From NCBI GenBank assembly GCA_947085985.1, contig CAMTYL010000003.1:234108-298107 (forward strand): 64,000 nucleotides of DNA, read 5' to 3'. Both the position numbers and the translations under genes were made by a program. The notes beneath the pieces are model-generated. The model searched no databases, had not been told where the DNA came from, and was given only the letters and a program-made list of their open reading frames with translations. The number at the start of each line of letters is the position of its first letter. Positions within the stretch are counted from its first letter, which is position 1. This stretch comes from an uncultured bacterium (GTDB lineage Bacteria > Patescibacteriota > Minisyncoccia > Phycocordibacterales > Phycocordibacteraceae). Below are positions 4,298 through 28,037 of the stretch, in pieces.

Positions 4298-7039
4298 TTA
4301 TGATAAATATCGCTCCCTGATTATACCTTCAACGGTAGCACGGTCTCGCCCGTAGGTCAGGAACGACAACTGCCTAAGGTCGTCTACCTGGTCTGGGTTC
4401 CCTGGCTGCAGTGGCACGGTCTTCATATTGAACGGCTTCTGCGGTACGCCATTTGCAAGCATGCGCACATACGCGTTACGGTTTTCAATATTCACAAAGT
4501 CATGTGCAGTAAATACTGGCGCAAATTGCTTGGCAAAAAACTCGGCATCTTCCTCGCCCACACGGAATACCGCCATATTACCCACGTTGCCAAACACCGC
4601 ACCGCGAATCTTCTCGTCCACCTGCGCGAGGTACTGGTGGGCAATCGTAAGCGAGAGCTTGTATTTACGGGCTTCAGAGAGAATGCCTGGAATGGAGGAC
4701 GTGGTGATGTTCTGGAACTCATCAATGTAGAGGTAGAAAGGAGGGAAGTTCTTCCCCACAGAATCAGCACGCGAAAGCGCCGCCATGAAGAGTTTGCCCA
4801 CAATGATAAGCCCGAGCAGGTTTGCGTTGCGCTCTCCCAGGCGACCCTTGGATAGGTTCACCAGTAGAATCTTCTTGTTATCAATGACCTCGCGGAACTT
4901 AAACGAAGATTCCTGCTGCCCAATGATTGGGCGCATAAAGTCGTTTGACGTGAACTCATCAATTTTGTTGGTGATGTAGGGCACCAAATTTTGCAGTGAT
5001 GCTTCGCCCTCTGTTTTAGTCGCAATCTCATTCCAGAACTGGTTAACCACTGCGTTGTTGCTACGAGAGAGCTTTAGATTTCTGAAGGCGGCATTAGACA
5101 TAACGCGTCCAATATCCATGAGCGTAGAACCTGAGGAAGGGTCCTCCATCACAAGCTGCGTCGCGTTTGTGAAATACTGCACAAACATTGGCCCCATAGA
5201 CTCGGGCACGTCTCCATAGAGTTGCTGGAATATAGCCAACATCTCGTTCACAATGAACGACTTTTGCTCAGGGCGTGCTGGATCATACTCCAACATGTTG
5301 AGTCCAAATGGTCGGTCAAGACTCGCTGGGTCAAAATAAATGACGTCCTCGTATCGCTCCGGAGGAATGCTTTCAAGTACTTCTATGACGTCGTTGCCGT
5401 GCGGGTCTATAAAACACACGCCGTTGCCTGCACGGATGTCCTGGTCAATAAGGGTGCGGAGCATTCCCGACTTACCTGCACCCGTCTGCCCGATGACATA
5501 GAGGTGGCGAAGCCGGTCTTCTGGAGAAATGCGTATTTCTGTTTCCACCCCCCTGTACGTATTGGTTCCCAGAATAGTACCTTCACTTGGTAGTCCTAGT
5601 GGAGGAGGAGCCACGGCTGCACGCGACTGCTTCAAGTGTGGAGACGACTCTATACCCTGTGGAGGGAAGTGGTAGAGGGTAGTGAGTTCACGAAGTGACA
5701 GCGGTACGTTGCTTGCCTTTTCATACAGACGGAAGGAAAAGTCGCGGAAGAATCGCTTCAGCCCGCTTTTGCCAGGACGCTTAAACTCAATACGGTTGCC
5801 CTTAGTATTCTCAAACTGATTGAAGGGTGCCTCTATTTCAGATAGCATTTGTTCCGCACGGTGCGCGTCCATGGACGAGGTCACGATGCGTATGTTTGTA
5901 GAAACAATCGGAGCAGCCATTTTCTTCTCCATCTGCTCAATAGCAGTTTCGTCCACAGGACGCTGTTCGGCATTGGTCTGTTTTGGGACAAACAGTCCTA
6001 CGGTCTCGCGCGCGAGGTCTCCGACAAACGTTTCAGGTAAACTAAATGCGCGTGCTCGATGCTCGCCCTTGCGGAGCTGATACAAAATACGACGATAGTG
6101 TTCCATGTATTTCTGGCCAGAGGGCTTAAATACAATCTGGAGTGACGCCCCTTCATCTTCGGGCGCAATTTTGGCAAACGCGTTTAAAAGCGCATTGATT
6201 GGGTCGGCATCAAAATCCTGGTAATCCTTTAGCGGAAGCATCGGCTTATCTTTTAGTTCAGCCACTGACCCAACAGCAGAACCTCCATCTACAAATACGT
6301 TGTAGTCGTTTGGCTGAACGACCGCGATGGCATCTGGGAAAATTGCGTGGAGCTGCTTCTCAAACAGGTCACGTCGTGAATTTGGAATAGCAGCATAAAA
6401 CATAAGGTGCGTGCGGTCCACGGGCACGGCCAACTCAAGGGTCATGTAGGACAACTCCCCCGCGTGGGCACTCTCTAGTCCGAGCATGCCTGAATAAAAC
6501 TGCTCCATACTAGAAACAAGCTCGCGCAGTGGGCGCATACGACCGCTTCCATCGTCTCCCTTGTGCTCTGGAAGGGATATTTCATACAGCGTCATGTGGA
6601 GCGCCTTCCATTCCGGCTGACTCTCACTAATCCCTCGCAGAGGCATGCCAGCAAGAAGGTACTGCACCAGGAAGCGGTGGAAGTCGTCGTCTAAGTGAGG
6701 GCTTCCTACTTTATCTAGAACAGCCATCGCGTTTCGCACACCCTTCGTTTCCATAATGCCCCGCAACTCTTCAATGCTGGAGTCGGTGCTTGCTGGGTCT
6801 AAGTTTAGTGAGAGCTTTCGTGCAGCATTCTCAGCGTCTGCAACCGGCATGGCGTAGCTGGGGTGAAATGCCTCATCAGGGGTTGCTATGCGGTGGTGCA
6901 CAATACGTTCCCGTGCGATTTCCGTCCGCGGTTTTTCTACTCGCAGCGTTGCGAGCTCCTGCTCTTTTACGGCAATTTGTGCACGCAGATACGCGAGCTC
7001 CTCCTCGGGAGAGGTTAATGGCTGTACAGGCCCTTCCAT
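4298..7039 (-). CDS. P-loop NTPase of the VirB4 / VirD4(TraG,TraD) / HerA-FtsK superfamily, likely type-IV-secretion-associated ATPase (913 aa)
   Basis: Walker A VIGQTGAGKSGML. CFIDPHGNDVIEVL (DPxG motif as in T4CP/HerA). Walker B-like LYIDEFQNI. Downstream ARKYKLSLTIAHQ (Arg-finger/Q motif pattern of TraD/HerA-type ATPases). About 450-aa N-terminal extension of unknown function. Confidence 0.55.
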   Translation of the reverse strand: MEGPVQPLTSPEEELAYLRAQIAVKEQELATLRVEKPRTEIARERIVHHRIATPDEAFHPSYAMPVADAENAARKLSLNLDPASTDSSIEELRGIMETKGVRNAMAVLDKVGSPHLDDDFHRFLVQYLLAGMPLRGISESQPEWKALHMTLYEISLPEHKGDDGSGRMRPLRELVSSMEQFYSGMLGLESAHAGELSYMTLELAVPVDRTHLMFYAAIPNSRRDLFEKQLHAIFPDAIAVVQPNDYNVFVDGGSAVGSVAELKDKPMLPLKDYQDFDADPINALLNAFAKIAPEDEGASLQIVFKPSGQKYMEHYRRILYQLRKGEHRARAFSLPETFVGDLARETVGLFVPKQTNAEQRPVDETAIEQMEKKMAAPIVSTNIRIVTSSMDAHRAEQMLSEIEAPFNQFENTKGNRIEFKRPGKSGLKRFFRDFSFRLYEKASNVPLSLRELTTLYHFPPQGIESSPHLKQSRAAVAPPPLGLPSEGTILGTNTYRGVETEIRISPEDRLRHLYVIGQTGAGKSGMLRTLIDQDIRAGNGVCFIDPHGNDVIEVLESIPPERYEDVIYFDPASLDRPFGLNMLEYDPARPEQKSFIVNEMLAIFQQLYGDVPESMGPMFVQYFTNATQLVMEDPSSGSTLMDIGRVMSNAAFRNLKLSRSNNAVVNQFWNEIATKTEGEASLQNLVPYITNKIDEFTSNDFMRPIIGQQESSFKFREVIDNKKILLVNLSKGRLGERNANLLGLIIVGKLFMAALSRADSVGKNFPPFYLYIDEFQNITTSSIPGILSEARKYKLSLTIAHQYLAQVDEKIRGAVFGNVGNMAVFRVGEEDAEFFAKQFAPVFTAHDFVNIENRNAYVRMLANGVPQKPFNMKTVPLQPGNPDQVDDLRQLSFLTYGRDRATVEGIIRERYLS

Positions 7040-7096
7040 ACTCTCTAGTATACGGCACTACTGCACGCATTCTGTCTCTACCCTGTAGAGAGCGCC

Positions 7097-7435
7097 CTAG
7101 TCTGTCTTGCGAATGATGATGTGGAAGAAGGCGTTGATGAGTGAGAGCACAATAGAGAAGAAGAGCGCGCCCCAGAATCCTCCCACAGAGAAGTCTGGCA
7201 CAATCGCGGCTGCCAAAAGCACTAGCAGTGCGTTAATCACCAGTGAAAACAGTCCCAGCGTCAAAATTGTGATAGGGAGCGTAAGAATAGCAATCACCGG
7301 CTTTACAAAGAGGTTCAGCACACCGAGCACCACCGCAAGAATAACCGCGCCAAGCAGGGTGACGTCGGTGTTAGGCACAATGTACCCAGCAATCAGTATT
7401 GCAACGACTGAGACGAAGAAATGTACGATGTTCAT
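7097..7435 (-). CDS. DUF360 / phage holin family 4_2-like membrane protein
   Basis: 112 aa, 4 predicted TM helices. Pattern LLGAVILAVVLGVLNLFVKPVIAILTLPITILTLGLFSLVINALLVLLAA...FWGALFFSIVLSLIN fits DUF360 consensus. Confidence 0.6.
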   Translation of the reverse strand: MNIVHFFVSVVAILIAGYIVPNTDVTLLGAVILAVVLGVLNLFVKPVIAILTLPITILTLGLFSLVINALLVLLAAAIVPDFSVGGFWGALFFSIVLSLINAFFHIIIRKTD

Positions 7436-7446
7436 GATGGGTACGG

Positions 7447-8130
7447 TTATGGTGTTACGAATGTAAATGTCGCAATAATTCTAGCAAGCTTGGCGTATTC
7501 CTCGTCCAGTACTGCCTGCGGAATGTCGCGGTCACTCGCAGCCTCGCGGTAGTTAGAACCAACGGCTAGCTTCTCTATCGCAAAGCAGGTGTTTTGGTGC
7601 ACCGTGCGATATGAAATGCCCCGCACGTACTGTTGCATGCCGGCGTTCTCAAACGAGTACGCCTTCCAGGTGGTGCCACCCATAACAATTTCAGTCAGCT
7701 CAATCTCTCCCTGGTCAGCTGCTGCGAAAAGGCATTCCTTCACTTCTTTACTATCCTTGCTGGCACCAATGCGAATAAGCGCGTCAAAATAGCGAGGGTA
7801 GCTATCTTTGCTCTCGGTAGAATATGTAGTGAACGACACGATAGGAGTGCCGACAGTCTCTGTGCCCGCCGCTACACGCCATAGTGCTGGCAGATGGTAC
7901 CCTGCAGCAAATGTCTCCGACACCACTGCCGACTCGGGGTACTGCAACATAAAGCCGTAGTCTCCGCTAATGTATATAGCGTCGCCTGGAGTCATAGGGA
8001 TATTATCCTCTTCGGTGCCAAACGAGTCAGCGAGCCGTTGACTTGAATCAACTAAATACCACGCCGCCCCGAGCGCGATAGCCACAAGCACAGTCGTAAG
8101 TAGTGTAATGATGAGTGTTCCGCGCTTCAT
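7447..8130 (-). CDS. hypothetical membrane-anchored protein (N-terminal TM, 227 aa)
   Basis: ORF with N-terminal hydrophobic anchor LIITLLTTVLVAIALGAAWYL. No recognised domain. Confidence 0.4.
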   Translation of the reverse strand: MKRGTLIITLLTTVLVAIALGAAWYLVDSSQRLADSFGTEEDNIPMTPGDAIYISGDYGFMLQYPESAVVSETFAAGYHLPALWRVAAGTETVGTPIVSFTTYSTESKDSYPRYFDALIRIGASKDSKEVKECLFAAADQGEIELTEIVMGGTTWKAYSFENAGMQQYVRGISYRTVHQNTCFAIEKLAVGSNYREAASDRDIPQAVLDEEYAKLARIIATFTFVTP

Positions 8131-8196
8131 ATATAAAAGTATAGTCTAGAGAACGCTGTCCCCACAGAACTATGTGACGGACAGCGAGCTGTTGTA

Positions 8197-9768
8197 TTAC
8201 GCGCAGGCCAGGTGAAGCTGACGCACTACATATTCGCGAGGCAAAACCGAGAGAAACCAGCCCGCCTTTGGACCAGAATCCCTATCCAGAAACACACGAT
8301 AGAGAGCCTGGAATAACTCTTTGGGAGCAATAGGTACCTCTGTCTTTAGTTGATGCAGTTTCTCGTGGAGCTCTTCACCAGTGCGCTCACCCTCCCCCAG
8401 AAACTGCGCCAGTGCGCCTAGTGCTGTCTTTTGTACCGCAGACAACTCCAGTCCACTTGGCAGCTCTTGCTGCAGACGGTACTGATGAGCCAGAGGCGCG
8501 TAGGTAGATAACCAGTACAGAGCATAGGTCTCACGCTCTTCTAGCACTCGTACTTCTTCCTTGGTGAGAGCTTCTCCCTTTATTCGCGCGGCTTCCTCAA
8601 GCAGTGATACATGGGGCATCTGCGCTATGAAAGCTACCTGCGAAAATCGCAGTATCCATGGTGCCACGTTATCCGCGCGCTCGTTTGGCAATTGCGTGTA
8701 CGCGTACAATCGGGTAAAATCATCCGCGACACCCGTTCGCACCAACTCCGACAAGTCGTCGTGCCAGTCATACATCCGCGGTACCGAGTCCCCTTCGGGG
8801 TCAACATCCACTTGCTGATTTATGTCCTTGCCAATAAGGGCGAGTCTAAACACCGCTGGAGGGAACAGATCACTCATATCGCGCGCAGAAGAGCCGCGAC
8901 CCTTTGAGGAAGACATTTTTTTGCCACCGACGAGAAAGAACTCATATGGCACGTCAAATGGTGGCTCGTAGTTGAACAATTCGCGTGCAATGTGCGCTGC
9001 GGCGTCGCGTGACCCGCCTTTGGTAGAGTGGTCCTTGCCAGCTCCTTCAATATCTACCTGTTGCACCATCCACTTTGCGGCCCAGTCCGCCTTCCAGAAC
9101 AACTTGGACGCCCCCTTCCAAGGAGCGATACGTCCCGTGTGTCCACACGGGACCGTTCCATCTGGACCCTTGTCGCACGCGTAGCCCACTGTTTCTCCAT
9201 CAAAATCAAACGCCCGCGTTGTCATCATCTTTCCACACGCCTCACACACCACCGACACCGGTAGCCACGACTCGTCCTTCACACTTCCAGATACTTCCTT
9301 CAAAATACGGCGCACATCAGCTGCGCGGGTAAGCACGGTTCGGATACAGTCGTCCATTTTTCCAGACTGGTAGAGCTCGGTTGCGCGGTAGTACGTAGGA
9401 GTAAAGCCTGACTTTTGGTGCACTGCTACAAACTCAGCACCAAAGTATTCCGCATAGTTATCGTATCCAGGAACGGGAGAAGGCACAGTGTACAGCGGCT
9501 TCCCTAAGTGTTCAGTGAACACTGCCTCGTCTAAGTAGCCGGGAATGCTATCAAAAGGGTCAAAATCATTTAACTCGTACCGGTACTCGCTTTCTACTCC
9601 GCGTGCTGCGAGCGCCTCGTGAACAAGTCCGTGAATGGCAACTCCCCGCATACTACCAACATGAACCCTTCCTGAAAGGGTCTTCTCGTCACGAATGAGA
9701 AATGTCTTTCCGTCCCGCGGAGTGCGGGTGCGAATAATGTCGTCAGCAATGCGGTCTGCCCAGAACAT
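8197..9768 (-). CDS. lysK: lysine--tRNA ligase, class I (archaeal/CPR type)
   Basis: HVGSMRG (HxGx class I motif) and KMSSSKG (KMSKS-equivalent of class I LysRS). Length 523 aa. Confidence 0.8.
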   Translation of the reverse strand: MFWADRIADDIIRTRTPRDGKTFLIRDEKTLSGRVHVGSMRGVAIHGLVHEALAARGVESEYRYELNDFDPFDSIPGYLDEAVFTEHLGKPLYTVPSPVPGYDNYAEYFGAEFVAVHQKSGFTPTYYRATELYQSGKMDDCIRTVLTRAADVRRILKEVSGSVKDESWLPVSVVCEACGKMMTTRAFDFDGETVGYACDKGPDGTVPCGHTGRIAPWKGASKLFWKADWAAKWMVQQVDIEGAGKDHSTKGGSRDAAAHIARELFNYEPPFDVPYEFFLVGGKKMSSSKGRGSSARDMSDLFPPAVFRLALIGKDINQQVDVDPEGDSVPRMYDWHDDLSELVRTGVADDFTRLYAYTQLPNERADNVAPWILRFSQVAFIAQMPHVSLLEEAARIKGEALTKEEVRVLEERETYALYWLSTYAPLAHQYRLQQELPSGLELSAVQKTALGALAQFLGEGERTGEELHEKLHQLKTEVPIAPKELFQALYRVFLDRDSGPKAGWFLSVLPREYVVRQLHLACA

Positions 9769-22178: not shown

Positions 22179-22213
22179 TCAATTACAAAGTGAGGCAATA
22201 CTCTTTATCACGC

Positions 22214-22687
22214 TTAGGAAAAGGGATCCCATCCAGGCCTAGTGTTCGGCGCTCGCTCGCGCAGGCGAATACTAATGAGCACGATGCTTGCACACCACAG
22301 AAGCACGGCAGCCACGAAGAGTCCACCCCCGTCTTGATTCGGGTCTATGCCAAGCGGTGTGAACAGGTGGAAGAATAGGGCACCCGACATAATGACAAAC
22401 GCGATGCCGCTACCGATAAGCGAAAGCACGCGGAAGCGCGGCAATAGTCCAAGGAGGATGAGAACCACCGCGATGAGTTCCACCGTGCCGATGACGTATG
22501 GACTGAATATGCCCGCGTGAGCAAAAATCCCAGAGAACCCAAGCGTACCGGCCCACGAATCAAGGATGCCAAAAATATTTTCAGTGTTCGGGTGATTTGT
22601 GAATTTATACCGAAGCGAGTCCAGGAATATAGCTGCGATATAGAGAGAAAGCACTATGGGAAAAACTGATGTGAATGATTTCTTCAT
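22214..22687 (-). CDS. DoxX-family membrane protein
   Basis: 157 aa, 4 TM. Pattern consistent with DoxX (MKKSFTSVFPIVLSLYIAAIFLDSLRYKF...ELIAVVLILLGLLPRF). Confidence 0.55.
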   Translation of the reverse strand: MKKSFTSVFPIVLSLYIAAIFLDSLRYKFTNHPNTENIFGILDSWAGTLGFSGIFAHAGIFSPYVIGTVELIAVVLILLGLLPRFRVLSLIGSGIAFVIMSGALFFHLFTPLGIDPNQDGGGLFVAAVLLWCASIVLISIRLRERAPNTRPGWDPFS

Positions 22688-22720
22688 ACAGACATAGTAT
22701 AGCGCTTCACAGTACTAACA

Positions 22721-22750
22721 TTGACAAAAGTACATTTATATGTATATAAT
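22721..22750 (+). promoter_or_regulatory. sigma-70-like promoter (TTGACA-N18-TATAAT) at the left edge of the GC-shifted island
   Basis: TTGACA at 22721-22726. TATAAT at 22745-22750. AT-rich context, 27 bp upstream of the 22777 ORF. Confidence 0.5.
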
Positions 22751-22776
22751 ACTTATAGGAATATCATTGCGCAGAC

Positions 22777-23133
22777 ATGGAGATTGCCATGCGCCTCGTT
22801 GCCCTTTCTATCGCCCTTGGCCTGCTACCCAGCGGACAGGTCGTCGCTGCCGAACCGAACTTCCTCCAGTTCTCGGAGGAACCGGTGGGACAGCCCTTCA
22901 CGCCGCCGCACTTGTCCGTCCGCTACAAAAACCGGACGCCCACCTACGCGGAGGCAGTGGCGCTGACGAAGTCCAAGCAGGAGTGCACAGCCGAAGTGGC
23001 GTCCCTCACGTCGTTTCGGAAGGACCGCTATGTCGCCTGCTTGAACTTCAAGCTGAAGCCGCTCGGAGTCGAAGTCACGCTCGCCGGCTCGGCGGCCGAG
23101 TTCGACGCCAAGTACGGTAAGAAGTTGAAGTAA
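22777..23133 (+). CDS. hypothetical secreted protein (signal peptide, 118 aa), GC-rich
   Basis: N-terminal MRLVALSIALGLLPSGQVVAA signal-like. GC visibly higher than flanks. Confidence 0.45.
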   Translation: MEIAMRLVALSIALGLLPSGQVVAAEPNFLQFSEEPVGQPFTPPHLSVRYKNRTPTYAEAVALTKSKQECTAEVASLTSFRKDRYVACLNFKLKPLGVEVTLAGSAAEFDAKYGKKLK

Positions 23134-23150
23134 CTATATCGCCTAACGGA

Positions 23151-23177
23151 GTCGCCCGACCCGTTGGGCGATTTCTG
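23151..23177 (+). terminator. rho-independent terminator
   Basis: TCGCCC-gacccgtt-GGGCGA then TTTCTGT. Confidence 0.45.
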
Positions 23178-23232
23178 TACCCCACCCCTGTTGTGTGATA
23201 GGTTGTCCTCGGACCAACAAGGGAGGCGCAAT

Positions 23233-23533
23233 CGTGCCTAAGAAAGAATTAGGCACCGTTGTGCCAAGCTCTGAGATGCCTGCATACGAAGCGCGCATCA
23301 TGACCACGACCGAGGGCCGCCAAAGTCTGCCCGACGTGCTTCAAAAAATGTACGGCGATAAAGGCATCGTGGCCTTTGACCGCTACGGACGAGTGATTGG
23401 GGTTGCGGTTCCGCTTGAAGCGATTCGCATGCTCGCCGGCGTCTATGTGGATGAAGCGGTCCGAATCCGCATTCGAAACACAGCCCACAACCTTCTCGAT
23501 CACCTTGACCAGCAACAAGAGGATGCCAAGTAG
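23233..23533 (+). CDS. Phd/YefM-like antitoxin-family protein (start uncertain: GTG 23233 after GGAGG, or ATG 23276; longest ORF from 23195)
   Basis: ARIMTTTEGRQSLPDVLQKMYGDKGIVAFDRYGRVIGVAVPLEAIRMLAG resembles the Phd/YefM fold pattern (T.TEAR..L.D.L....G.V...R.G...AV.V..E.Y..L). Confidence 0.45.
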
Positions 23534-23758
23534 ATGCAAACAGTAATACTGCCGCAGGCAGTTCCCACCTACGAGAAGTTCCCTGGGTGCGGGCTTATGA
23601 CCACGAACATTCGGCTTCCCGCTGGTACTGAGGTGGTCCTGGACCCACCCGTGATGGTGCAGGTCAACGGGCGCGAGGTCAAAGCCTACCCGCTCTACAA
23701 CGAACCCGAGACTTTCGTACTCTTCAGGGAGCTCGGTCTGCCCGACCTCGTCGACTAG
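23534..23758 (+). CDS. hypothetical small protein translationally coupled to the Phd/YefM-like gene (candidate toxin partner)
   Basis: ATG directly abuts the upstream TAG (TAGATG). 74 aa, no match to RelE/ParE/Doc motifs. Confidence 0.4.
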   Translation: MQTVILPQAVPTYEKFPGCGLMTTNIRLPAGTEVVLDPPVMVQVNGREVKAYPLYNEPETFVLFRELGLPDLVD

Positions 23759-23762
23759 CCAG

Positions 23763-23800
23763 CCCACCGGCTGCGGATTGCCCGCTCCGGTGGGTTTTCT
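23763..23800 (+). terminator. rho-independent terminator
   Basis: CCCACCGG...CCGGTGGG stem followed by TTTTCT. Confidence 0.55.
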
Positions 23801-23811
23801 GTATCAACGCG

Positions 23812-24618
23812 CTAGTAAACCGATACGGAATTCACAATTCGCCTTGATGCAGCCCTATGTGCAATTCTTTCTTTAGAAGTAGGAACGGTGGCATACAATA
23901 GCGCAGCTAAGTCCTCTGAAGTCCTAGCGACTACTGCATCCACTGCAGGCATACCGCATAGCGTCTCTAGCAGTGCGCACTTCTCTTCTTCCGAATTTCC
24001 TACTGCGGCACCAAGGATTACGCACCCTGCCACGGACCCCTGAAGGCTGTCAGCGTCCTGTTGTCGAACGACAACGTACTCGGTAAGTCCAAGCGCGCTA
24101 ATCACCGCACGCGAGCGCACACAAGCTGTCTCGTCTCTGTCTATGCAGATGATGCGGGTGCCATATAGGTGCGCAGTAAGAATAGCGGAGAGCGGAAGCG
24201 GGCCAGAGCCTACAAAGTACATGGGCTCAGTCACTGAGGTATGTTCCTGATAGAAATCAAACTCCTCATGCACCAACGCAACGTAGTTTTTATAGTACGG
24301 GAACTCGCGCAAACAGGTCCACGCATCCTCTGCGTCGACAATCCTCTGCGACCAATACTCTTCCATACGAAACTCTCCTTCTGCTGCGACACTGCGCACG
24401 CGTGCCACATCTGCTTCAGAGAACACCGAGAGGTGACCGTTTCCACGATGAGCAAGGATAAGACCAACTAACTCCGAAAAGAGTGCGTCAACCTCGGGCG
24501 AGGGAGCAAGTGATGGAAGAGCTTGCAACGCGTCAACAACAGAAAGAACCTGCGCTTTTATCTGCGCAGGTGAAACGGGAGTACTAGTAGCAGTTGTCAT
24601 GAGTAGTATGAGTGCCAC
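23812..24618 (-). CDS. nicotianamine synthase-like protein (NAS/CntL family SAM-dependent aminobutyryl transferase)
   Basis: Collinear NAS hallmarks: LAPSPEVDALFSELV, FPYYKNYVALVHEEFDFY, MYFVGSGPLPLSAILTA, C-terminal RIVNSV. Confidence 0.65.
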   Translation of the reverse strand: MALILLMTTATSTPVSPAQIKAQVLSVVDALQALPSLAPSPEVDALFSELVGLILAHRGNGHLSVFSEADVARVRSVAAEGEFRMEEYWSQRIVDAEDAWTCLREFPYYKNYVALVHEEFDFYQEHTSVTEPMYFVGSGPLPLSAILTAHLYGTRIICIDRDETACVRSRAVISALGLTEYVVVRQQDADSLQGSVAGCVILGAAVGNSEEEKCALLETLCGMPAVDAVVARTSEDLAALLYATVPTSKERIAHRAASRRIVNSVSVY

Positions 24619-24666
24619 AGACCCAAAGGGTCTGTGGCAAAAAGTTGAGCAAGCGTGCGCTTCGTC

Positions 24667-26280
24667 CTAGATGGATTCGCGCGTCGTCTGCCAGACCTGG
24701 ACGTCACCACCGAGCTGTTGTGCGTGGTTAAGCGCACGCAGCAGGAGGTGACGGTCCTTGTTGAGCGTCGAGAAAGAAAGCGCACGGCAGAGTTCGAGTT
24801 GTTGCCAGTAGGCCCGCTCAGGGTCGCTGTTGAGCGATCCCAGCGAGAGCACGCCTTCGGCCGCCATGTCGGCGAGCCTGAGCGACTCGGCTTCTTCTCG
24901 AAACTGACCGAGCTCTGCAGGAAACGCATGCAGCCACCAGGTGATGGAGACGGCAAGCTCACGCTTGTTCGTCGCCACCTCAGAAGCGGCAATGTGCTCT
25001 TCTTGTTCCCGCAGGACCGTTGCGGCTGCGAGCCAGTACTGCATGCAGCGATACAAGGCCCTAGGGAACCACTCGTCGCGCACCGACCCTCGCCGTGCGA
25101 CTTCTTTCAGGATCTGCAGCGGTTCCGGATGTGTAATGAGCCGAAGCGCACCATCAGCCGACACAATCTGCGGCGACGCAGGAATCTCTTCCATGAGTCG
25201 CTGAACTTCCCGAATGGTCTCCTCGCGGGTTCCGGACTCCCTACGCATCAGCTGATAGCTTTCCGCGAGTTCGCCGGGCCCGTCGTACGAGACGATGAGC
25301 TGCGCGAGGCTTGGCAGGTCGAGCGCAAGCGATACGGGCCGCGTGGCGTAGAACGTCACGAAGCCGCGTTCGTCTGGCAGTGTCTGCGTCCAGGTCTCAT
25401 GGACCCGGTTGAACAGTCGACCGTCGCAGGCGCCCTTCACACGAGGAACGAATTCCTGCGTGCCATGGAACACCTGTTGCACGCCGGCGAATGTAGCATC
25501 CGCGGCAAGCAGGTATGAGTAGAGCGCCATGCCGTGTTCATCGTGATGATGATCGTGGTGGCCTTCGTGATTGTGTGGATGCGCGTGATGGTCGTGATGA
25601 CCATGACTACATGCACTGTGGTGGCACGCGGACTTCATGACGACGCCCTCGCCAAGCAACGCGCGAGGAACCGCATCACCTTCGGGAAGAAGGAAGATGC
25701 GCTTACCCGAGGCGTGTTGCTCGATGTAGTCGATGACGCCGTCGAGACGTTCGTCAGCGACGCTCATGACGTCAGGCGGATACTTGGTGAGCGCGATGCC
25801 CACCGTAGCCGCCTTTATCTGGCTTTCCATGATGGCGCCATAGCGCACGCGATTCTGCTCCAGATGGAGCACATCCACGACGCAGACCACCTGGAATGGG
25901 TATCCCGCGGACGAGAGAAAGTTTTTCGTTTCGTCGCCCGACACAATGCCGAACCCCTCCACGAAGATCCATTCCATCCCGTCTGCCGCAAGCGCATCAA
26001 GCGTTCGCCGCAGATCAGCTTCGTCCGAGCAGGTGAAACAGCCGTTCACCATGGGCATGACGGAAGCGTAGGCCGAAGCCACACTTCCGTCCACATTCCC
26101 AATGCCACCCTCGTCGTTGACGATATAGGCGCATCGCTCGCGACTCACTTCTCCAGACTCGGTAAGCGAGCGAAGTGTGGCCACCGTCAGACTGGTCTTA
26201 CCAGCTCCAAACGGCCCCACAGCCGCAAAGATATGCGGCACTGCCGTAGCTTTCATTATCTTCCCCTCCTTGGGGTTCAC
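24667..26280 (-). CDS. COG0523-family (CobW/ZigA/YeiR-like) metallochaperone GTPase with His-rich linker and extended C-terminal domain
   Basis: Walker A GPFGAGKTSL. CxxC-type metal motif NGCFTC (compare CobW GCICC). His-rich stretch CHHSACSHGHHDHHAHPHNHEGHHDHHHDEHG. About 280 aa of C-terminal sequence of unknown function. Confidence 0.6.
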   Translation of the reverse strand: MNPKEGKIMKATAVPHIFAAVGPFGAGKTSLTVATLRSLTESGEVSRERCAYIVNDEGGIGNVDGSVASAYASVMPMVNGCFTCSDEADLRRTLDALAADGMEWIFVEGFGIVSGDETKNFLSSAGYPFQVVCVVDVLHLEQNRVRYGAIMESQIKAATVGIALTKYPPDVMSVADERLDGVIDYIEQHASGKRIFLLPEGDAVPRALLGEGVVMKSACHHSACSHGHHDHHAHPHNHEGHHDHHHDEHGMALYSYLLAADATFAGVQQVFHGTQEFVPRVKGACDGRLFNRVHETWTQTLPDERGFVTFYATRPVSLALDLPSLAQLIVSYDGPGELAESYQLMRRESGTREETIREVQRLMEEIPASPQIVSADGALRLITHPEPLQILKEVARRGSVRDEWFPRALYRCMQYWLAAATVLREQEEHIAASEVATNKRELAVSITWWLHAFPAELGQFREEAESLRLADMAAEGVLSLGSLNSDPERAYWQQLELCRALSFSTLNKDRHLLLRALNHAQQLGGDVQVWQTTRESI

Positions 26281-26340
26281 TGTTGAAGGACATAGAGCGC
26301 CAAGGTGGCGCTCCCCATAACGACTGTATCGTGTTTAGGT

Positions 26341-26367
26341 TCTAGTTGCAAACCATTCGCAACTAGA
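26341..26367. promoter_or_regulatory. near-perfect ~26-bp palindrome TCTAGTTGCAAaccaTTCGCAACTAGA upstream of the COG0523/NAS operon (candidate metalloregulator operator)
   Basis: 11-bp arms with 1 mismatch. Lies between a putative promoter and the RBS (AAGGAGGGGAAG) of the 26280 start. Confidence 0.45.
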
Positions 26368-26408
26368 TGCTGTTGGCATGGTGTATACTAGCACGGTTAA
26401 TAGGAGCG

Positions 26409-26675
26409 TTAGCGATGCGGACACCCAGCAAAACAGCATGGACGGCGCATGCCTCCACTTAGTTTTGAGATAGTCTTCTCAATACGAATTCCGCGCGTCT
26501 CTGCCCTTTTTCCTGAAATTACCCAACAGACCCATTCACTGCGCGCAAGCGGAGTAATATCCTCCCAGACCGCAAGAGCTTTTGGTGCCATTGCAATTGC
26601 AGCCTTCAAATCAGCAGGCAATGTGTGAGCAGGACCCTTCCGTTTCATAACAGTATTGTACAGCGCCCAGATCAA
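26409..26675 (-). CDS. YdeI/OmdA-family protein (DUF1801-like)
   Basis: LPADLKAAIAMAPKALAVWEDITPLARSEWVCWVISGKRAETRGIRIEKTISKL matches the YdeI/OmpD-associated family pattern. Confidence 0.5.
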   Translation of the reverse strand: MIWALYNTVMKRKGPAHTLPADLKAAIAMAPKALAVWEDITPLARSEWVCWVISGKRAETRGIRIEKTISKLSGGMRRPCCFAGCPHR

Positions 26676-26768
26676 GAAGCGTGCTGTGCTGGCAGTCTGG
26701 GAGATGTTGGAACCTTTTGACCAAATCTTCCGAAGCCCTTAGTATGCGACCAGACGGAGGAGCGCATA

Positions 26769-27119
26769 ATGCTTGATTCAGAAATCGCCAACTCCATTGT
26801 GGAGTCGAGCCTAAAATTGCTCGGTGCTCCATACCGAGAAGACTACAGATGTATTGAGTTCGCCCGAGAGGTGTACAGCACCGTCGGACTTTCTCTGCCT
26901 CCGCCTTCGATGAATCTAACGGTGGCGGATATGAAAGACCCGCCCATAGGTTATGTCCTGTACCTGAGGCACAAGGCTCATCGCGGAACGAGTCTATTCA
27001 CTCACGTAGTGATTACGCTTTCAGAACGTAGATGTATACACGCGTCCTATTACTTCGGGATGGCAGTTGTCATAACTGATCTTGATGTACTGCTTGAACT
27101 GTACGACGTAGCCACCTAA
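26769..27119 (+). CDS. small NlpC/P60 (C40 peptidase)-like protein (tentative)
   Basis: LGAPYREDYRCIEFAREVY (Cys in DCSG-like position), later THVVI / CIHAS His residues. Overlaps the convergent 27021-27776 ORF by 99 bp, so one of the two may be shorter. Confidence 0.35.
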   Translation: MLDSEIANSIVESSLKLLGAPYREDYRCIEFAREVYSTVGLSLPPPSMNLTVADMKDPPIGYVLYLRHKAHRGTSLFTHVVITLSERRCIHASYYFGMAVVITDLDVLLELYDVAT

Positions 27120-27776
27120 ACGACCCACTTCAGCGAAGTGGGTCGAGCTGTTTTTGCTGGCCGTCTCGCAAGGTAGATCAATACCTGCGAGTACGAGAAT
27201 TGAAAGTGCTGAGAACAACAGCACACACAGATTCCCTATTATGAAGAAAAAGAAAGCGCTCTTTCGCAGTAACGAACCTACGATTCCATATCGAGCAGCT
27301 CTTCCTTTAGAAAGCTCTGCTAGCCCAGCAAACTCCGTTGCGGATATCCTGAGCTCCTCGATTTTTTCTGGCTCGTCTTCGGGCGCGATTCCGTTAAAAG
27401 TTAATCTCCCTTCCTCCGCCATTGCGACCATCTCTTTCCTCTCTTCAGCATGAAGACGCACCCATTCTGCGTGTAACATCCGTGACGTATGCTCAGCAGT
27501 AAAGACTCTGATGTAAATACCGACAAGGAGAGTTACGAAAAGGAGTCCCCAGCCCAGGAACACAATCTCATATAGTGGAACCGAAAAGGCTTCCTCTGTA
27601 AGAACATCTACTTCAACCGAGATTAAGTAACCTATGAAGGTTATGCTCAGCGAGATAACGCCACCGCTGTAGAGCGCCAGCTTCTCGTAGAAGCTTGATA
27701 GTGCTTTTGTGTGCTCATCGTTGGCATCACTATATGCAATGGCGGCCTCCTGAATAGAGTTCGGTTGTATAGGCAT
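27021..27776 (-). CDS. hypothetical membrane protein (251 aa)
   Basis: Several hydrophobic helices (FYEKLALYSGGVISLSITFIGYLISV; FLGWGLLFVTLLVGIYIRVF; FFFFIIGNLCVLLFSALSILVLAGI). Confidence 0.45.
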   Translation of the reverse strand: MPIQPNSIQEAAIAYSDANDEHTKALSSFYEKLALYSGGVISLSITFIGYLISVEVDVLTEEAFSVPLYEIVFLGWGLLFVTLLVGIYIRVFTAEHTSRMLHAEWVRLHAEERKEMVAMAEEGRLTFNGIAPEDEPEKIEELRISATEFAGLAELSKGRAARYGIVGSLLRKSAFFFFIIGNLCVLLFSALSILVLAGIDLPCETASKNSSTHFAEVGRLGGYVVQFKQYIKISYDNCHPEVIGRVYTSTF

Positions 27777-27881
27777 GACTTACACATCATAGCGGAACTA
27801 CAATGTTTTGCCTTACTTATTTACTAGCCCATGTACGCTAGAACGAGAATAACCTACAACACGTGTCGTGCTAGCTGTCAA

Positions 27882-27912
27882 TGGCTGGGGGAAAGGGATT
27901 CGAACCCCTATA
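27882..27912 (-). pseudogene. orphan tRNA 3' fragment (T-arm + acceptor 3' strand + CCA) with no matching 5' half
   Basis: Reverse strand reads ...AGGGGTTCGAATCCCTT-TCCCCCA-G-CCA. The required 5' acceptor complement (TGGGGGA) is absent within 100 nt. Confidence 0.4.
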
Positions 27913-27966
27913 GACGGCACCAAAAACCGTGTCCTACAGGCGAGTGAGCGAGTGAAATGTGCTGTG

Positions 27967-28037
27967 CTGGGAGACTAGGGATCGAACCTAGATTCACGGC
28001 TTCAAAGGCCGCTGTCCTACCATTAGACGATCTCCCA
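27967..28037 (-). tRNA. tRNA-Gln (anticodon TTG)
   Basis: Reverse strand TGGGAGA-TC-GTCT-AATGGTA-GGAC-A-GCGGC-CTTTGAA-GCCGT-GAAT-CTAGG-TTCGATC-CCTAG-TCTCCCA-G. All stems pair. Confidence 0.8.

Follow-up and report, generated by a model that had tools for sequence, protein, structure and literature searches.

The 64-kb stretch analysed here (contig CAMTYL010000003.1, from an uncultured, probably Saccharibacteria-like bacterium of the candidate phyla radiation, CPR), hereafter called the window, carries on its minus strand a pair of co-directional genes placed behind a palindromic operator. The first gene (24667-26256) encodes a divergent COG0523-like P-loop NTPase of 529 aa, starting at the ATG of position 26256, for which we coined the label G3EL, whereas the second (23812-24600) encodes a 262-aa protein of the nicotianamine synthase (NAS) family with its ATG at 24600. 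This arrangement of an NAS-like protein and a GTPase read in the same direction had been described in an initial annotation and stands as such, but the lengths given there (268 and 537 aa) correspond to alternative starts, a GTG at 24618 with the same end at 23812 and an in-frame GTG at 26280, respectively. For the NAS gene the ATG is preferred because the GTG sits buried in a 12-bp hairpin, because the gene of a 96%-identical relative (locus L026) was called at the ATG, and because the spacing from hairpin to ATG is the same as in other lineages. In the case of G3EL, a ribosome-binding site (RBS), AGGAGG at 26265-26270, lies 8 nt 5′ of the ATG, and gene callers picked the 529-aa form. Comparison with the 96%-identical relative revealed purifying selection on both genes, with ratios of nonsynonymous to synonymous divergence (dN/dS) of 0.25 for G3EL and 0.16 for NAS.

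The two proteins of the gene pair

The proposal that the downstream gene encodes an NAS-like enzyme was borne out by the Pfam profile NAS (PF03059), which matches residues 22-247 with 111.4 bits (E=6.4e-32), four-fold above the cut-off of 27.1, and by conservation of the catalytic residues. In a sequence comparison with the PDB, the best solved structure is the thermonicotianamine synthase of M. thermautotrophicus (MtNAS, E=1e-12), whereas the structures of S. aureus CntL match only weakly (E about 1e-3) and the NCBIfam equivalog for CntL (NF033601) yields 33 bits against a cut-off of 350. Residues E81 and Y107 of MtNAS, which we take from the work on this enzyme to be catalytic and for which the PDB holds mutant forms, align to E86 and Y112 of the window NAS (numbered on the 268-aa form) and are invariant in 22 of the 22 NAS sequences aligned with the MtNAS fragment. 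Moreover, the motif VGSGPLPL for binding of S-adenosylmethionine (SAM) can be read directly in the protein. These profile and residue matches place the downstream protein firmly within the NAS family, nearer to the archaeal thermonicotianamine synthase than to CntL.

MtNAS (PDB 3fpe/3fpf) and the plant and fungal NAS belong to the same Pfam family as the window protein and share with it the equivalents of E81 and Y107 and the GxGPLPL site for SAM. Like the archaeal and plant enzymes, the window protein is a short core NAS of ~265 aa for which an opine dehydrogenase partner would not be needed. Unlike MtNAS and the plant and fungal enzymes, however, it is bacterial and lies in an operon with a Fur-family box behind a G3E NTPase, and the NAS of its relatives is coupled or fused to either a GNAT domain or an orphan protein family that we label X152. 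In the CntKLM opine-metallophore systems for staphylopine, pseudopaline, yersinopine and bacillopaline, a bacterial NAS-like enzyme is likewise controlled by a regulator of metal starvation, and two reports on P. aeruginosa place cnt genes together with COG0523 genes in the Zur regulon (PMC8531726, PMC11481552). In contrast to these systems, neither CntM nor CntK, an exporter or a chelate importer was found by Pfam annotation in any CPR cassette examined. The absence of CntK and CntM near the NAS gene, already noticed for the window, was confirmed among the called genes within ~10 kb of the pair, the part of the 64 kb to which the CntM scan was confined, both in the window (locus L001) and in its 96% relative. 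In a more distant relative (L006), a 214-aa protein encoded ~3 kb from the cassette (4511-5155, minus strand) matched the histidine racemase models HisR (E=3e-10) and CntK (E=1.3e-7) weakly, far under the cut-offs, and no homologue of it was found in the window. The published survey of nicotianamine-like bacterial clusters used CntM as its entry point and declared itself blind to CntM-free systems (PMC7438024).

As regards the upstream gene, its assignment to COG0523 holds in general terms. The cobW profile of Pfam (PF02492) matches G3EL with 52.9 bits (E=4.4e-14; cut-off 20.7), though over residues 21-167 only, YjiA of COG0523 comes out as the closest sequence in the PDB (E=5e-9), and the predicted fold matches the SIMIBI GTPases. 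The GAGKTS and GCFTC motifs and the His-rich stretch that had been read in the protein are all present: GPFGAGKTS (Walker A), EGFGI (ExxG) and NGCFTC are invariant across the G3EL family, and the His-rich stretch of the window protein holds 16 His in 45 residues. The protein is, however, a divergent one. Where YjiA has NGCICC, its aligned NGCFTC motif carries Thr in place of the middle Cys (CxTC, not CxCC), only the TK of the NKxD motif is kept in the family, with P, E, S or T at the Asp position (TKTD in YjiA), and the CobW_C domain (PF07683) gave no Pfam match even at E≤10. A comparison by hhalign of the region after the linker with the CobW_C domains of canonical paralogues was weak (probability 53%, E=1.4e-4) and aligned the RxKG motif, and a beta-rich domain was seen at residues 244-304 of the structure model. 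Taking these data together, the minus-strand gene would encode an NTPase domain (residues ~1-200, 25657-26256), a His-rich linker (~209-241, 25534-25632), a CobW_C-like beta domain (~242-325, 25282-25533) and a family-specific helical domain (326-529, 24670-25281).

The C-terminal domain of ~280 aa had been regarded as uncharacterised, which agrees with the finding that its helical part of 200 aa is restricted to the family and has no specific fold relative among those searched. A profile of this helical domain found 76 cluster representatives among 1.84 billion proteins, nearly all of them ~500-550 aa long and carrying the domain at the same position, and therefore G3EL is, at the level of sequence, a small and distinct subfamily, COG0523-like but not a typical member. 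The domain contains many invariant polar residues, and homology with X152 was rejected (hhalign probability 0.2%). With the COG0523 metallochaperones (YjiA, YeiR, ZigA, ZagA, ZNG1) and CobW, G3EL shares the G3E P-loop fold, the Cys motif after the second strand, a His-rich stretch followed by a beta domain with RxKG, and membership in a Fur-family regulon, whereas CxTC, TKxx without Asp, the lack of a Pfam CobW_C match and the extra 200-aa helical domain set it apart. Both kinds of protein often stand side by side within one cassette in the relatives.

Operator, putative promoter and intercistronic hairpin

The palindrome in front of the operon (26341-26367; TCTAGTTGCAAACCATTCGCAACTAGA, which reads TCTAGTTGCGAAtggTTTGCAACTAGA on the gene strand) has a 12-3-12 structure with one mismatch, is present as a single copy in the 64 kb and was contained in 0 of 100 shuffles. 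Whereas the near-perfect palindrome of the initial annotation is thus real and unique, its placement between promoter and RBS had to be revised. Its core, the 6-5-6 box TTGCGA-ATGGT-TTGCAA (26346-26362, gene-strand reading), overlaps a putative sigma-70-type promoter on the minus strand (26323-26351) made up of a −35 element TTGCAA (26346-26351), a 17-nt spacer and a −10 element TACAGT (26323-26328). This promoter falls under the threshold of a consensus scan (8/12 matches) and was deduced from conservation instead of being independently detected: the layout TTGCAA-17-TACAGT (or TACGCT) is also found in L026, L006, L009, L016, L017 and L023. Since this arrangement is met again at protein identities of only 38-50%, the right hexamer TTGCAA most plausibly doubles as the −35 element, so that the box lies over it and not downstream of the promoter. 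Allowing up to 2 mismatches, the box pattern occurs in the window only at this site; five sites with 3 mismatches were considered as further regulon members and rejected, as their number is at chance level.

The box is far from exclusive to the window. The pattern TGCAAATNATTTGCA was found within 250 bp upstream of the operon in 15 of the 15 CPR loci scanned, with at most 3 and usually no more than 2 mismatches, and most metagenome loci having upstream flank carry it as well, whereas it was seen upstream of G3EL in none of the four myxobacterial loci. The consensus in CPR loci is (a/t)TGCAA-N5-TTGCA(t/a), often at −104/−105 from the start codon, with the hexamers conserved and the central five bases not. 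In the 96% relative, box, promoter, leader and RBS are retained with 4 differences in 113 nt, compared with a synonymous divergence (dS) of 0.08-0.14, while the sequence 5′ of the box, neighbour gene included, is wholly different from that of the window. The same box appears in front of transporter genes: L024 has a perfect copy before a ZIP gene (E=6.7e-23), and in L019 and L038 a Fur gene and a ZIP-like gene run divergently from a box between them. The search of relatives also placed the palindrome of orthologous loci next to genes for Fur-family regulators. On this comparative basis, the palindrome can be considered a real operator. The possibility that it acts as a terminator for the OmdA gene lying upstream was rejected for three reasons: no T-run follows, the hexamers are conserved across lineages in sequence and not just in pairing, and the 96% relative keeps the palindrome behind another gene with its own terminator.

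Close to the predicted 5′ end of the transcript, a leader hairpin GAGCGCC-accuu-GGCGCUC can be read directly (26295-26313, minus strand). It is identical in L026, its fold is no better than that of shuffles (z=−1.0), and many relatives show at this position (about −56) a second box, TGCAAA...TTTGCA. A known riboswitch or other known RNA in the leader was rejected after obtaining no Rfam match even at E≤10.

A much more stable structure separates the two genes. Between the G3EL stop and the NAS start lies a stem-loop, UGCCACAGACCC-uuu-GGGUCUGUGGCA (24613-24639, minus strand), with a perfect stem of 12 bp and a z-score of −5.99 that none of 200 shuffles equalled. Strong hairpins (z from −3.4 to −6.0) occur at the same position in all 14 lineages folded, with unrelated stem sequences, the loci sharing this position being L006, L009, L013, L014, L016-L019, L024 and L031-L034. 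In most relatives the hairpin is followed by a T-run, usually TTTTTATA(C), with the NAS ATG within about 20 nt, and it therefore looks like a terminator; in the window and L026, ACTCATAC replaces the T-run, and the termination signal appears to be weakened in this lineage. The simplest reading is that of a partial terminator or RNA-stability element that would set the ratio of G3EL to NAS.

Cassettes of the relatives

G3EL is rare: searches recovered 8 matches from 5.8 billion proteins, 11 loci from bacterial and archaeal genomes taken at one genome per species, and 10 from JGI metagenomes. The records name Candidatus Saccharibacteria, Parcubacteria and Paceibacteria as hosts, with distant members (31-33% identity) in Myxococcota. 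In 21 of the 21 distinct non-myxobacterial loci with enough flank, the NAS gene follows directly 3′ of G3EL, an order not seen in any of the four myxobacterial loci. The next gene in 18 of these 21 loci is X152, a family of 152-201 aa (examples at 11432-12037 of L006, 10511-10969 of L009, 10456-10914 of L014 and 9240-9830 of L029) whose invariant residues include W, YK, AY, H, IC, R, W, E and KW, and for which no relative was found in Pfam, NCBIfam or the PDB. A gene of the Fur family (PF01475) adjoins the cassette in most loci, and canonical COG0523 paralogues are found inside it in L006, L014, L024, L029, L031 and L033. The window and L026 represent the only lineage with a bare G3EL-NAS pair; genes for Fur, X152, ZIP and canonical COG0523 were not found elsewhere in the 64 kb by tblastn, nor, in the case of Fur and X152, by family hidden Markov models (HMMs). 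As far as gene content goes, the window holds a reduced form of a larger cassette, which in the relatives also comprises X152 and a Fur-family gene and, frequently, a canonical COG0523 protein and ZIP.

Such a reduction could also mean decay, with a lineage that lost X152, the canonical COG0523 gene and Fur and was left with an unregulated or non-functional pair. Apart from the missing X152 and Fur genes, the loss of the T-run after the intercistronic hairpin and the different GC content at third codon positions (GC3) of the two genes, 0.69 vs 0.49, would be consistent with it. Nevertheless, both open reading frames (ORFs) are intact and under the purifying selection mentioned above, and box, promoter, leader and RBS were kept in the 96% relative despite the replaced upstream gene, which makes a decaying remnant very improbable. 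A shift in GC had in fact been attributed to the whole region, but it applies to the G3EL gene (60.1%) and not to the NAS gene (52.2%), which equals the window mean of 52.8%; nearby housekeeping genes show GC3 values of 0.57-0.60.

The physical associations of NAS deserve a closer view. In protein P0011 (423 aa), X152 is fused to the C-terminus of NAS, and in a Doudnabacteria locus (L029) NAS is fused to a GNAT acetyltransferase (7001-8308). This last locus has NAS without G3EL, and after the fusion gene come a canonical COG0523 gene, an X152 homologue, a ZIP gene inside the operon and YibE_F, with the same box and a divergent Fur-family gene in front. The fusions, the strict linkage of NAS to G3EL, its linkage to a small orphan protein, the lack of a transporter and a G3EL C-domain rich in invariant polar residues, without known fold relative, could be brought together by assuming that the enzyme transfers the 3-amino-3-carboxypropyl group of SAM to a macromolecule (the His-rich loop of G3EL, X152 or RNA), yielding a modified metal-binding protein and no free chelator. 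However, the catalytic residues and the overall similarity match MtNAS, a small-molecule enzyme, L029 has NAS but no G3EL and the window has NAS but no X152, and we know of no member of the NAS family that modifies macromolecules; this idea seems barely credible.

Transport genes bear on a different question, whether the NAS product works inside or outside the cell. No exporter (MFS, EamA, MatE) or chelate importer was found in ~20 CPR cassettes, where the only transporters are ZIP and YibE_F, nor in the region of the window covered by Pfam-annotated gene lists. On account of this lack, which sets the CPR cassettes apart from the myxobacterial NAS cluster, we lean towards an intracellular role of the product in buffering or shuttling. 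The alternative is a secreted metallophore (zincophore) that would be exported, bind metal outside and return through transporters encoded elsewhere, with G3EL only redistributing the metal. Being attached to hosts, CPR cells could obtain metal from them in this way. Besides, the myxobacterial NAS, 40% identical to that of the window, lies in a classical cluster with a TonB receptor, ABC, MFS, PhyH and ATP-grasp genes, and every characterised bacterial NAS-like enzyme (CntL) makes secreted metallophores (PMC7438024). Against secretion speaks the lack of export and uptake genes, as ZIP moves free ions, and we regard this alternative as tentative and on balance unlikely, though one to be kept in mind.

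The myxobacterial loci offer observations of their own. In Pyxidicoccus fallax (L027, 327-10410), an ABC transporter, a TonB-dependent receptor, a PhyH dioxygenase, NAS, an ATP-grasp ligase and an MFS exporter are grouped without CntM, in what is probably a distinct, undescribed cluster for a nicotianamine-derived metallophore. The distant myxobacterial homologues of G3EL (L011, 2449-7269; L021, 9923-10840) are found near canonical COG0523 genes and not near NAS, with DUF1826, GST and metallophosphatase genes also close by in L011, contexts that point to a broader metal-related role for the G3EL family.

A proposed metal-starvation module and its surroundings

Zinc is most likely the metal sensed, because ZIP importers, canonical COG0523 paralogues and a His-rich G3E protein are the typical content of a response to zinc limitation. 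The box itself leads in another direction, and nickel is therefore kept as a rival. The published box of the Ni-responsive regulator Nur has a 6-5-6 form, tTGCaa-N5-ttGCAA (PMC3919588, PMC2691836), from which the window operator TTGCGA-ATGGT-TTGCAA departs by one mismatch, while TTGCAA-CATAG-TTGCAA of L006 fits perfectly; architecture, hexamers and promoter overlap are the same as in Streptomyces coelicolor, and, as with Nur boxes, conservation is low over the five bases at the centre. A module for nickel (or cobalt or iron) would consist of a Nur-like repressor sensing Ni, a His-rich G3E NTPase acting as a Ni chaperone of the HypB/UreG kind and a ligand that binds Ni. Ni chaperones typically contain His-rich stretches, and both nicotianamine and staphylopine are good ligands for Ni. 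Unlike Nur of S. coelicolor, however, the regulators adjacent to the CPR cassettes lack the Ni-site histidines: His70 and His72 of Nur (3eyy), the two columns compared out of a site that also includes His126, align to F/N in the L009 regulator, and to R/D or K/D in the others by Fur-alignment columns. The Nur paper itself states that the Ni site is conserved only in Nur orthologues. Moreover, a regulon containing ZIP and a canonical COG0523 protein points to zinc, and none of the loci showed an enzyme or a transporter for Ni, so that a nickel module looks quite unlikely.

Altogether, we propose, with a probability of roughly 0.55, that the pair is a two-gene reduced form of a CPR metal-starvation cassette combining a nicotianamine-type chelator with a new metallochaperone. 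A Fur-family repressor, whose gene adjoins the cassette in relatives but is not in these 64 kb, would bind the 6-5-6 box TTGCGA-N5-TTGCAA and, sitting over the −35 element, block the promoter while the sensed metal, most likely zinc, is plentiful. Metal shortage would relieve repression and allow synthesis of G3EL, a putative metallochaperone with its Cys-x-x-Cys site, His-rich loop, CobW_C-like domain and a helical domain that might serve as docking site for a partner or client. Read-through of the intercistronic hairpin would then give the NAS-family enzyme, which might move aminobutyrate units from SAM to build a nicotianamine-type polyamino-carboxylate chelator with no opine-dehydrogenase step, a direct synthesis that would resemble that of the archaeal and plant enzymes and differ from that of CntL/CntM. 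The chelator would hold or shuttle the scarce metal, and the NTPase would hand it to essential client proteins. Behind this proposal are the observed enzyme families and catalytic residues, the gene order, the operator with its link to Fur and ZIP genes, the hairpin and purifying selection; from them we infer the identity of the metal, the chemical product, its action inside or outside the cell and the coupling of chelator and NTPase.

Several facts weigh against the proposal of a reduced metal-starvation cassette. No Fur-family gene was detected in the window even with the family HMM at E≤10, and regulation here is thus deduced from the conserved box alone. The Fur-family regulators of the relatives are not assignable by sequence to Zur, Fur, PerR or Nur: all fall far below the cut-offs of the NCBIfam equivalogs, and the L009 regulator, compared with the sequences of the PDB, lies at about the same distance from each of the four. 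In the same line, the box resembles that of Nur and not the 7-1-7 box of Zur. X152 is absent from the window though it stands next to NAS in 18 of 21 loci, and therefore the window NAS may make a different or incomplete product. G3EL may differ from characterised COG0523 proteins both in its metal site and in its specificity for nucleotides, since it has neither the middle Cys of CxCC nor the Asp of NKxD. Finally, the terminator-like hairpin of the relatives means that co-expression of G3EL and NAS may be only partial.

That NAS is so strictly linked to G3EL, and that the helical domain is confined to this family, suggests that the two proteins are coupled directly, whether in function or by physical contact. 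In its furthest extension, which is speculative and in our opinion rather unlikely, G3EL and NAS, with X152 in the relatives, would form an unrecognised metal-trafficking machine in which G3E NTPases of a new class strictly require the nicotianamine-type molecule made on site as ligand or cofactor, the helical domain binds NAS or the metal-ligand complex, and nucleotide hydrolysis drives metal hand-over in an episymbiont of minimal genome. If this were true, a bacterial nicotianamine pathway independent of CntM and a metallochaperone coupled to a chelator would each be seen for the first time. So far, nicotianamine-like chemistry in bacteria is known only from the CntL/CntM opine metallophores, mostly of pathogens, and CPR lineages are generally regarded as minimal in biosynthetic capacity. 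Here, a CntM-free NAS is strictly tied to a new long COG0523-like NTPase, the relatives add an orphan protein sometimes fused to NAS, and an operator motif is defined for a CPR Fur-family regulator, all of which provides a testable link between chelator and metallochaperone, a matter poorly understood for COG0523 proteins in general. The system combines known kinds of components, namely a Fur-family metal regulon, a NAS-type chelator synthase and a G3E metallochaperone, with two protein domains without known relatives. Full-text searches of the literature, covering titles, abstracts and some papers, found no NAS-COG0523 operon, CPR NAS gene or Fur-family box for these phyla, and comparative genomics supports the early suggestion that the genes belong to an uncharacterised metal system with a regulator of the Zur/Nur kind.

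The surroundings of the operon are variable, and its flanking small genes differ in the 96% relative. An OmdA/YdeI gene (26409-26675, minus strand; Pfam E=9.7e-18), which had been said to follow the pair, is actually located upstream of it on the same strand, and was rejected as a component of the system since its position is occupied by an ion-channel gene in L026. On the other side, two small ORFs without Pfam match (112 and 74 aa; 23195-23758, plus strand) are convergent with NAS. The TAG stop of the first and the ATG of the second abut at 23533/23534, the 74-aa ORF is kept in the 96% relative, and a terminator-like hairpin lies 3′ of both at 23780-23795. Small unannotated ORFs fill the region 22200-27960, operon included, with a tRNA-Gln gene at its edge (27966-28037, minus strand), and a putative tRNA-like sequence can also be read by eye directly 5′ of the L006 cassette.

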